From Escherichia coli (GTDB taxonomy: Bacteria; Pseudomonadota; Gammaproteobacteria; Enterobacterales; Enterobacteriaceae): DNA of 64,000 nt. The DNA is taken from assembly GCF_050920415.1 (NCBI RefSeq), contig NZ_CP169309.1; one strand, given 5' to 3'. This document shows, piece after piece, positions 16,942-46,528 of this stretch; position 1 is the stretch's first letter; every line of letters starts with the position of its first letter. Both the position numbers and the translations under genes were made by a program. Below the pieces are notes generated by a model. The model searched no databases and was not told the origin of the DNA. It was given only the letters and a program-made list of their open reading frames with translations.

Positions 16942-18958
<2,017 letters not shown>

Positions 18959-18990
18959 TTTGTAAACCGTCCGGCACTCAATCGCCAAAA

Positions 18991-19218
18991 AGAAAAAAGC
19001 CAGCAGATAATCACTGCTGGCGTGGCGATTAACACCAATACTCAGTCACACATGATGTCCGCAAATCAGTAGTCAGAATGACTCCCCTCCCACTGCATCA
19101 GCTCTTCAAGCATGGTTAATCGTTGTGGGACGCTTAACCAACGCAACCAGCACAACTTCGCTGTCGCGGTAAAATAGTGCTGATAAAACTGACGCATGGG
19201 GCACCTCCTTGCTTCATC
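18991..19218 (-). ncRNA. sgrS: Small RNA SgrS (glucose-phosphate stress sRNA)
   Basis: Minus strand begins GATGAAGCAAGGAGG, contains the SgrT ORF and the seed-like stretch GTGTGACTGAGTATTGGTGT, ends in hairpin ccagcagtgattatctgctgg plus U-run; ends approximate. Confidence 0.85.
19066..19197 (-). CDS. sgrT: SgrT small protein encoded within SgrS
   Basis: 43 codons MRQFYQHYFTATAKLCWLRWLSVPQRLTMLEELMQWEGSHSDY with AGGAGG SD upstream. Confidence 0.85.
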   Translation of the reverse strand: MRQFYQHYFTATAKLCWLRWLSVPQRLTMLEELMQWEGSHSDY

Positions 19219-19285
19219 GTTAGGAATTATTGACTTAATATAGGGAAAATAAAATTGCTGTCTTTTGCGCAGGAGTTCCCCTTTT

Positions 19286-20941
19286 ATGCCATCCGCTCGT
19301 CTGCAACAACAGTTCATCCGCCTGTGGCAATGCTGCGAGGGTAAATCGCAGGACACAACGCTCAACGAACTGGCAGCGTTATTGAGCTGCTCGCGTCGTC
19401 ATATGCGCACCCTGCTCAACACCATGCAGGATCGCGGCTGGCTGACGTGGGAAGCGGAAGTCGGGCGCGGTAAACGCTCGCGTCTGACATTCCTCTATAC
19501 CGGGCTGGCGCTTCAGCAACAGCGGGCGGAAGACCTGCTGGAGCAGGATCGTATCGACCAACTAGTGCAGTTGGTTGGCGACAAAGCGGCTGTGCGGCAA
19601 ATGCTGGTTTCTCATCTGGGCCGCAGCTTCCGCCAGGGGCGGCACATCCTGCGCGTGCTCTACTATCGTCCGTTGCGTAATCTGCTACCTGGCAGCGCAT
19701 TGCGCCGTTCTGAAACCCATATCGCCCGGCAAATCTTCAGTTCGCTAACGCGCATAAATGAGGAAAATGGGGAACTGGAAGCAGACATCGCCCACCACTG
19801 GCAGCAAATATCACCGCTTCACTGGCGCTTCTTTTTGCGTCCAGGAGTCCATTTTCATCATGGTCGTGAACTGGAAATGGACGATGTGATCGCCTCTTTA
19901 AAACGAATCAATACGCTGCCACTCTATTCACATATTGCTGAAATTGTGTCGCCGACACCCTGGACGTTAGATATCCATCTCACGCAACCAGACCGCTGGT
20001 TGCCGTTACTGTTGGGACAAGTTCCGGCGATGATCCTGCCACGAGAATGGGAAACCCTCAGTAACTTTGCCAGCCATCCCATCGGCACCGGTCCGTATGC
20101 GGTGATCCGCAACAGCACCAATCAACTGAAAATTCAGGCATTCGATGACTTCTTCGGTTACCGGGCATTAATCGACGAAGTTAACGTCTGGGTTCTGCCG
20201 GAAATTGCCGACGAGCCAGCCGGAGGGCTGATGCTAAAAGGTCCACAGGGCGAGGAAAAAGAGATTGAAAGTCGGCTGGAAGAAGGTTGCTACTATTTAC
20301 TGTTCGACAGCCGCACCCATCGTGGGGCGAATCAGCAAGTCAGGGACTGGGTAAGTTATGTGCTTTCTCCAACTAATCTGGTCTATTTCGCCGAGGAACA
20401 ATACCAGCAACTCTGGTTTCCAGCCTACGGGCTGTTGCCGCGCTGGCATCATGCCCACCCGGCGCAGTGCGAAAAACCTGCCGGGCTGGAAAGCCTCACC
20501 CTGACCTTTTATCAGGATCATATTGAGCATCGAGTGATTGCCGGGATCATGCAGCAGATTCTGGCAAGTTATCAGGTCACACTGAAAATCAAAGAGATCA
20601 GCTATGATCAGTGGCACGAAGGAGAGATCGAGAGCGATATCTGGCTTAACAGCGCCAACTTTACGCTGCCGCTGGATTTTTCGCTGTTCGCGCATTTGTG
20701 CGAAGTGCCGCTGCTACAACACTGTATTCCGATCGACTGGCAAGCCGACACCGCCCGCTGGCGCAATGGCGAAATGAATCTGGCGAACTGGTGCCAGCAA
20801 CTGGTCGCCAGTAAAGCAATGGTGCCACTTATCCACCACTGGCTGATCATTCAGGGGCAACGCAGTATGCGCGGTCTGCGTATGAACACCCTCGGCTGGT
20901 TCGATTTTAAATCAGCGTGGTTTGCGCCGCCGGATCCATGA
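19286..20941 (+). CDS. sgrR: Transcriptional regulator SgrR (HTH plus solute-binding-like domain)
   Basis: 551-aa protein from [19 protein letters not shown], divergent from sgrS. Confidence 0.93.
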
Positions 20942-21104: not shown

Positions 21105-22088
21105 GTGTTAAAAAAATATCTTCCCCTGCTGTTGCTCTGTACAGCACCCGCTTTCGCTAAACCCGTTCTGACTGTTTATACCTACGACTCCTTCGCCGCC
21201 GACTGGGGGCCAGGTCCGGTGGTGAAAAAAGCCTTTGAAGCCGACTGTAATTGCGAACTGAAACTGGTGGCGCTGGAAGATGGCGTTTCGCTTCTCAACC
21301 GTCTGCGGATGGAAGGCAAAAACAGTAAAGCCGATGTGGTGCTGGGGCTGGATAACAATCTGTTAGATGCCGCCAGCAAAACCGGGCTGTTTGCTAAAAG
21401 CGGTGTGGCAGCGGATGCCGTTAACGTTCCCGGCGGCTGGAATAATGACACTTTCGTCCCGTTTGATTACGGCTATTTCGCCTTCGTCTATGACAAGAAC
21501 AAACTGAAAAATCCGCCGCAAAGCCTGAAAGAATTGGTTGAAAGCGATCAAAACTGGCGGGTGATTTATCAGGATCCGCGCACCAGCACGCCGGGGCTGG
21601 GTCTGCTGTTGTGGATGCAAAAAGTCTATGGCGATGACGCCCCACAAGCCTGGCAGAAACTGGCGAAGAAAACGGTCACGGTCACCAAAGGCTGGAGCGA
21701 AGCCTACGGCCTGTTTTTAAAAGGCGAAAGCGATCTGGTACTGAGTTACACCACTTCTCCGGCTTATCACATTCTCGAAGAGAAGAAAGATAACTACGCC
21801 GCCGCGAACTTCAGCGAAGGTCACTATTTGCAAGTGGAAGTCGCCGCCCGCACCGCTGCCAGTAAACAGCCGGAGCTGGCGCAAAAATTCCTCCAGTTTA
21901 TGGTTTCTCCGGCTTTTCAGAATGCGATCCCAACCGGCAACTGGATGTATCCGGTGGCAAACGTCACGCTGCCTGCCGGTTTTGAAAAATTGACCAAACC
22001 GGCAACCACGCTGGAGTTCACGCCAGCCGAGGTGGCGGCACAACGTCAGGCATGGATTAGCGAATGGCAACGCGCCGTCAGCCGTTAA
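21105..22088 (+). CDS. thiB: Thiamine ABC transporter periplasmic binding protein ThiB (TbpA)
   Basis: Track ORF begins with TTG at 21093; start placed at GTG 21105 giving (M)LKKYLPLLLLCTAPAFA signal peptide; start uncertain. Confidence 0.9.
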   Translation: MLKKYLPLLLLCTAPAFAKPVLTVYTYDSFAADWGPGPVVKKAFEADCNCELKLVALEDGVSLLNRLRMEGKNSKADVVLGLDNNLLDAASKTGLFAKSGVAADAVNVPGGWNNDTFVPFDYGYFAFVYDKNKLKNPPQSLKELVESDQNWRVIYQDPRTSTPGLGLLLWMQKVYGDDAPQAWQKLAKKTVTVTKGWSEAYGLFLKGESDLVLSYTTSPAYHILEEKKDNYAAANFSEGHYLQVEVAARTAASKQPELAQKFLQFMVSPAFQNAIPTGNWMYPVANVTLPAGFEKLTKPATTLEFTPAEVAAQRQAWISEWQRAVSR

Positions 22089-46294: not shown

Positions 46295-46528
46295 CTAGAA
46301 GCTCCGGTACTCATCAGAGAAACATCCGGTTTCATCAGCCAATTGATTTAACGCAGCGATAGCTTCTGCGTTCTCTTCACGCCAACGTGTTGCTGCATGT
46401 TTTTTAAGTTCAGCATTGAGCGCAACCGTAAGGGTGGCGCTCATATTTAAGCCTGCATCACGAGCGCGATTGACTAACTCACGGTCGACGGTGACGGTCA
46501 CACTTTGTGTGGTACGTTTTGCAGTCAT
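46295..46528 (-). CDS. ccdA: ccdA-like antitoxin
   Basis: 77-aa ORF MTAKRTTQSVTVTVDRELVNRARDAGLNMSATLTVALNAELKKHAATRWREENAEAIAALNQLADETGCFSDEYRSF; CcdA-like, stop 2 nt before the ccdB-like ATG. Confidence 0.8.
   Translation of the reverse strand: MTAKRTTQSVTVTVDRELVNRARDAGLNMSATLTVALNAELKKHAATRWREENAEAIAALNQLADETGCFSDEYRSF

Follow-up and report, generated by a model that had tools for sequence, protein, structure and literature searches.

The minus strand of the window, by which we mean the whole 64,000-nucleotide stretch of E. coli DNA analyzed here, encodes the small RNA SgrS at 18992..19218. When the whole window was scanned with Rfam, three families scored above the gathering score, and SgrS (RF00534) was the best of them: the match at 19218..18992 covered model positions 1-232 of 232 and scored 228.9 bits (gathering score, 37; E = 2.5e-64). 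Read from 19218, the minus strand is GATGAAGCAAGGAGG; the 227-nt RNA starts with GATGAAGCAAGGAGGTGCCCCATG and ends with GCCAGCAGTGATTATCTGCTGGCTTTTTTC. Its fold was better than the folds of all 200 shuffled sequences (energy z-score of -3.8). The original prediction had recognized an sRNA-like unit on this strand, named it SgrS, and proposed comparison with the covariance model; that comparison matched from end to end. The span given then, 18991-19218, has the correct start, and its 3' end lies one base beyond the end of the model match (18992). The E-value of the covariance model excludes a chance match, as does the identity of the locus to E. coli genomes that have been annotated. The sgrS region is 100% identical to that of E. 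coli strain MFDS1022581, and the 64-kb window as a whole differs from the genome of that strain by four SNPs and one 15-bp indel.

Within SgrS lies sgrT, an open reading frame of 43 codons plus a stop that occupies nt 22-153 of the RNA (19066..19197, minus strand). Translation from 19197 to 19066 gives MRQFYQHYFTATAKLCWLRWLSVPQRLTMLEELMQWEGSHSDY, 43 amino acids, and the Pfam SgrT family (PF15894) matches residues 3-37 with 50 bits (cut-off, 27 bits). None of the NCBIfam models matched the SgrT ORF. The protein has the same accession as SgrT of strain CFT073, WP_001248768.1. In pairwise comparisons, codons 1-36 had pN/pS values of 0.11-0.55, which come from small counts and are confounded by constraint on RNA structure; codons 37-43, encoding the C-terminus, are free to vary. 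The length of the ORF and its core are retained across genera. The start codon is changed from ATG to ATT in 312 of 5,426 complete E. coli genomes (~6%), which were of the O157 type in all the matches listed. RefSeq/PGAP calls a 'glucose uptake inhibitor SgrT' CDS in O157:H7 genomes despite the ATT start, and the reference record for the O157:H7 strain Sakai has nothing annotated at the position of sgrT.

The ORF had been predicted to follow a strong AGGAGG Shine-Dalgarno (SD) sequence. This sequence is present at SgrS nt 10-15 (19204..19209, minus strand), with six nucleotides between it and the ATG of sgrT, and it is not a special property of this strain. By SNP-centred megablast over the 5,426 complete E. 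coli genomes, AGGAGG is the majority allele (3,856 genomes; 71%) and AGGGGG, the allele of K-12, is the exception (1,429 genomes; 26%). In K-12, mutagenesis demonstrated that an inverted repeat at the SD, GGGGGTGCCCC, represses translation of sgrT (Wadler & Vanderpool 2009, PMC2760806). The stem-loop formed by the K-12 SD was found in only 3 of 15 strains in an earlier survey (Horler & Vanderpool 2009, PMC2760817). The counterpart of the inverted repeat in the window is GGAGGTGCCCC, and the local hairpin is lost: its predicted free energy is -0.4 kcal/mol here versus -6.0 kcal/mol in K-12. Because the SD has the consensus sequence and the sequestering hairpin of K-12 is gone, SgrT is probably made more efficiently from this allele than in K-12, judging from the local hairpin and the K-12 mutagenesis. 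Equilibrium folds of the full-length RNAs did not separate the two alleles (SD accessibility of 0.32 in the window and 0.31 in K-12), and for this reason we infer the higher output rather than read it from the folds.

The conserved base-pairing stretch anticipated downstream of the ORF was found at SgrS nt 168-187. This seed, GUGUGACUGAGUAUUGGUGU (19032..19051, minus strand; GTGTGACTGAGTATTGGTGT when read from 19051 to 19032), is complementary to ptsG positions -28 to -9, across the ptsG SD in the ribosome binding site. It forms 17 of 20 possible pairs in a 5-8-4 pattern that agrees with the published one. The duplex has a predicted free energy of -28.4 kcal/mol, which was reached by 6 of 2,000 shuffled seeds, and SgrS nt 168-181 are predicted to be unpaired with a probability of 0.89. 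At the level of the species, the ptsG leader is nearly invariant: 5,379 of 5,424 E. coli genomes have one that is at least 99% identical. Duplex folding with longer segments (140 nt paired with 50 nt) produced structures too full of loops to interpret; it was dropped and replaced by short-segment and ungapped analyses. All 16 other enteric homologs in the alignment have the same seed as the window, an invariance that is largely by construction because the pattern used to retrieve the homologs fixed 17 of the 20 seed positions.

Downstream of the start of the seed, SgrS is predicted to form two hairpins. The small hairpin UGGUG-UUAAU-CGCCA (19022..19037, ±1 nt, minus strand) is putatively part of an Hfq-binding module. 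It is kept in both E. coli alleles by means of different 3' arms (GGUG/CACC in K-12, UGGUG/CGCCA here), and it is present in other genera with either CACC or CGCCA as the 3' arm. The second is the intrinsic terminator that had been predicted to follow the pairing stretch (18992..19021, minus strand), with an 8-bp stem, a 7-nt loop and a U6-C-U5 tail. It corresponds to the terminal helix of the Rfam model, and a scan for the terminator consensus matched it at 19021..18999 as GCCAGCAG-TGATTAT-CTGCTGGC followed by TTTTTTCTTT. The terminator hairpin is more stable here (-14.1 kcal/mol) than in K-12 (-12.6/-10.6 kcal/mol), and the unbroken run of U residues is six nucleotides long here versus eight in K-12. 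Functional Hfq-binding sRNAs typically have at least seven consecutive T residues, according to the Aiba laboratory (PMC5558911). Because T6 also occurs in several SgrS homologs of other genera, we would regard the U6-C tail as a nuance and not a defect. Weak sigma-70-like matches (9 of 12 positions) were seen on the plus strand at 18982-19011 and 19029-19056, antisense to the 3' part of sgrS; the one at 19029-19056 overlaps the seed and is present in K-12 too.

Divergent from sgrS is sgrR (19286..20941, plus strand), encoding the 551-aa transcriptional activator of sgrS. SgrR matched the NCBIfam equivalog NF010149 over residues 1-550 with 1,122.6 bits (cut-off, 476), and has the Pfam domains SgrR_N (PF12793), which binds DNA and is N-terminal, and SBP_bac_5 (PF00496), a solute-binding domain at the C-terminus. 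The distance of 68 bp given in the original prediction is the difference between the coordinates of the sgrR ATG (19286) and the SgrS +1; 67 bp lie between them, the same as in K-12. This control region (19219..19285) contains a -10 element, AATAAT, at about 19226-19231 and no good -35 element. Since the -10 is good and the -35 is poor, the sgrS promoter appears to be activator-dependent. The region is identical to that of K-12 except for one SNP at -51, in a column that is variable among 21 genomes and at which the window has the majority base. The blocks CATAAAAGGGGAACTCC, CAGCAATTT, CCCTATATTA and CAATAAT are intact across the 21 genomes. Within sgrR, part of the 3' third (~20430-20760) is 73-90% identical to K-12 per 60-nt window, versus 95-100% elsewhere in the gene, and this block of divergence points to a further mosaic, produced by recombination, inside sgrR.

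On the other side of sgrS, the locus differs from that of K-12. The stop codon of leuD is at 18958, and the junction of 33 bp between it and the 3' end of SgrS (18959..18991) is the site of a setA deletion, as judged from sequence and synteny; its counterpart in K-12 contains 1,179 bp of setA. A tblastn search with K-12 SetA found no match anywhere in the window, and the K-12-type arrangement of sgrS and setA in an operon is absent here. The original prediction had described the locus as intact even though setA is missing. Both observations hold; the oddity that they implied does not, as the setA-less arrangement is a standard Escherichia haplotype. Of the 5,426 complete E. coli genomes, 3,241 have K-12 setA, whereas the window-type sgrS 3' end together with the leuD junction is present in 2,157 and the contiguous arrangement in 2,159 (~40%), including CFT073 and O157:H7. 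The two states exclude each other, and few of the genomes have neither.

To place these states, homologous loci were located by a scan of species-representative genomes for the seed pattern followed by tblastn synteny; the scan returned no E. coli type strain, E. fergusonii or S. enterica subsp. enterica, and the absence of these is uninformative. The setA-less junction of the window was also found in E. albertii, E. whittamii and Escherichia sp. E1V33, as well as in one divergent genome that carries the label E. coli; Escherichia sp. MOD1-EC7003 is of the K-12 type. By tblastn synteny, sgrS is followed immediately by setA in Citrobacter, Salmonella arizonae and diarizonae, Klebsiella, Raoultella, Enterobacter, Atlantibacter, Siccibacter, Superficieibacter and Pluralibacter. 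An initial reading of the window as Salmonella, on the premise that this genus lacks setA, was rejected: the window is E. coli, and setA lies downstream of sgrS in both S. enterica arizonae and diarizonae. Parsimony points to a single deletion of setA within Escherichia. Because other enteric genera retain the gene, the setA-less state is, on this distribution, an old and widespread deletion haplotype and not damage to the locus.

The setA-less junction co-occurs with a diverged 3' third of sgrS, which is 72% identical to K-12 versus 98% in the 5' part. The block of divergence from K-12 begins at about SgrS nt 130, continues through the indel, and reaches about 120 nt into leuD at its 3' end. 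Within this block, the seed CATCATGTGTGACTGAGTATTGGTGT is unchanged. In the other setA-less Escherichia genomes that we compared, the window-type 3' sequence is 94-97% identical to that of the window. SgrS of NZ_JAATUR010000005.1 (labelled E. coli strain SCPM-O-B-8794) shares only 93% identity with the window allele and 83% with K-12, and SgrT is changed at several residues in this genome, which may represent a cryptic clade of Escherichia and not E. coli in the strict sense.

Comparison with named systems defines the allele. SgrS/SgrT of K-12 MG1655 (b4577/b4662) is the experimentally characterized reference, and it has the same length (227 nt), the same +1 and the same architecture as the window RNA. 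Over SgrS nt 1-130, the two are 97.7% identical, differing at G13A (AGGGGG to AGGAGG) and in codon 32. Over nt 131-227 they are 72.2% identical, and the seed (nt 168-187) is identical. The SgrT proteins differ at residues 32 and 37-43. The terminator stem is closed by a G-U pair followed by U8 in K-12 and by a G-C pair followed by U6-C-U5 in the window, and G-C-closed 8-bp stems are common among the SgrS homologs of other genera. In K-12, setA lies downstream of sgrS and is co-transcribed with it by read-through, whereas the window has no setA.

The closest named relative is the allele of CFT073, with which the window shares 226 of 227 nt of SgrS; only the last nucleotide, past the U-tract, differs. 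CFT073 and the window agree in SgrT, in the AGGAGG SD, the seed and both 3' hairpins (the small one and the terminator), and in the lack of setA. CFT073 differs from the window in that an IS200C transposase has inserted into the setA-less junction, past the sgrS terminator and before leuD (positions 2078-2536 of the extracted CFT073 locus). SgrS of O157:H7 Sakai is identical to that of the window at 225 of 227 nt, including the whole 3' part, and belongs to the same setA-less haplotype; the two differences are the ATG to ATT change at the sgrT start, where the window retains ATG, and one synonymous change. The CFT073 and O157 alleles were previously reported to be 88% identical to K-12, with the start-codon mutation in O157 (Horler & Vanderpool 2009, PMC2760817). 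SgrS of Salmonella and Citrobacter has in common with the window the seed, the +1 GATGAAGC, the promoter blocks, sgrT, the small hairpin and the terminator. These genera keep setA downstream, their SgrT sequence and 5' leader differ from those of the window, and in Salmonella SgrS the seed is separated from the terminator by an additional hairpin. We considered the window allele as a new recombinant, with a K-12-like 5' part and a setA-less 3' part, and rejected this because it is the published CFT073 allele. The mosaic pattern, as the alignments place it, is a property of the whole haplotype.

Taken together, we are about 96% confident that the locus is the E. coli sgrR-sgrS/sgrT glucose-phosphate stress module in its setA-less, CFT073-type haplotype. 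By analogy with experiments on K-12 in the literature, accumulation of sugar-phosphates would lead SgrR to activate the divergent sgrS promoter, and the 227-nt transcript would have two activities. The single-stranded seed near the 3' end (nt 168-187) would pair over the ribosome binding sites of ptsG mRNA and other targets, aided by Hfq bound to the module of small hairpin, terminator and U-tail, and this pairing would block translation and lead to decay of the mRNA. Translation of the 5' two-thirds of SgrS would produce the 43-aa SgrT, a direct inhibitor of the glucose transporter PtsG, probably in larger amounts than in K-12, and setA would play no part in the response of this strain. Inhibition of PtsG is known for the SgrT proteins of K-12 and Salmonella (PMC2760806); the variant encoded in the window has a different C-terminus, at residues 37-43.

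The RNA could instead act only as a base-pairing riboregulator, with an sgrT frame that is dispensable or not translated to any meaningful extent, as in O157:H7, whose sgrT has lost its start codon. The native output of SgrT in K-12 is too low for rescue of growth (PMC2760806), 312 genomes of the same haplotype carry the ATG to ATT change with no other damage, and the last seven codons of sgrT are unconstrained. The window, however, has an intact ATG and a consensus SD at 6-nt spacing, and the repressing hairpin is broken. In addition, the ORF scores above the SgrT family cut-off, pN/pS in the core codons is below 1, and ORF length and core persist across genera. We therefore consider a riboregulator without a working sgrT very unlikely here. 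We give almost no credence to a further possibility, that the sugar-stress module is breaking up, with the loss of setA as the sign of it, and that sgrS is a decaying remnant no longer under selection. The absence of setA and the 72% identity of the 3' third of sgrS to K-12 would fit such decay, but every functional element is intact, sgrR is full length, and the seed is invariant inside the diverged block. Moreover, other Escherichia species and ~40% of E. coli have the haplotype in nearly unchanged form (94-97% in the 3' part), which argues that it is stably maintained.

Two other proposals accept the stress module and concern its 3' end. One holds that the RNA is the same and that the biology of its 3' end is altered: a sizeable fraction of SgrS transcripts might end early or be read through antisense into leuD, transcription of the leu operon might run antisense across SgrS, and the RNA might be less Hfq-competent than in K-12 or more exposed to antisense interference. 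The stronger terminator, the T6-C-T5 tract in place of T8 and the convergent leuD at a distance of just 33 bp are in line with this. In K-12 constructs, over-stabilized hairpins and shortened U tails abolish Hfq binding, and about 50% of polymerases read through the K-12 sgrS terminator into setA (PMC5558911, PMC4509938). The terminator scan found no terminator with a U-tract past leuD in the leu direction within the window, and so read-through from the leu operon would be antisense to SgrS. On the other hand, T6 tails and G-C-closed 8-bp stems are common in the SgrS homologs of other genera, the age and wide distribution of the haplotype argue for function, and the scan of K-12 in the leuD direction was likewise negative. 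We looked for a difference between the haplotypes in leu-operon termination and make no such claim, as both were scan-negative in this direction. On balance, altered 3'-end biology is unlikely.

The other proposal is that the two forms of the locus are an old cross-species polymorphism that selection maintains, and not one that drift and linkage have preserved. The setA-plus form would combine setA with the K-12-type sgrS 3' end, and the setA-less form would combine its absence with the window-type end, a different SgrT C-terminus, a stronger hairpin and U6-C. If this were true, the 3' end of sgrS would be co-adapted to what lies downstream, with leaky termination feeding setA in one form and tight termination against the convergent leuD in the other. 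What we observed is that the haplotypes are common to several Escherichia species and that the block of divergence is sharp. This evidence permits a polymorphism maintained by selection and does not support it; the selection and the functional co-adaptation are speculative, and we think the proposal improbable.

Several other features of the window lie near the module or further along. The leucine operon leader/attenuator (RF00512; 14084-14233, plus strand; 147.5 bits) is upstream of leuABCD and a TPP riboswitch (RF00059; 20975-21074, plus strand; 66.1 bits) is upstream of thiBPQ, both as expected at these positions. At window position 22084, at the thiB stop and the thiP N-terminus, there is one copy fewer of an imperfect 15-bp tandem repeat (GTTAATTCCCGGCTG / GTTAATTCCAGGCGT) than in NZ_CP169399.1, which is otherwise 99.97% identical to the window. 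The loss shortens ThiP from 536 to 531 amino acids in frame and leaves the thiB stop unaffected. According to the annotation of the near-identical genome, the interval from rluA to djlA contains espY1, a gene for a type III secretion effector, together with a fragment of a frameshifted transposase gene (~36925-37881), and a chromosomal ccdA lies beside a ccdB pseudogene with an internal stop between apaH and folA (~45978-46528). O157 Sakai has a related gene, espY2, between thiB and sgrR that the window lacks. In the carnitine operon, caiE (~61548-62137) is annotated as frameshifted in the near-identical genome, and the window is identical to it there.

SgrS/SgrT is among the best-studied dual-function sRNAs of bacteria. 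The one found here is already known, down to the allele, because its SgrS is the CFT073 allele described in 2009 (PMC2760817), and the locus has little discovery value in itself. The original prediction did recognize the dual function of this sRNA, and placed it correctly, from the raw sequence. The comparison over 5,426 complete E. coli genomes updates the population figures for the locus: setA is absent from ~40%, the K-12 SD hairpin is present in ~26%, and the sgrT start is lost in ~6%. K-12 is atypical both for expression of SgrT and for the coupling of sgrS to setA, and what has been concluded from it may therefore not hold for pathogens of the B2, D or E lineages.
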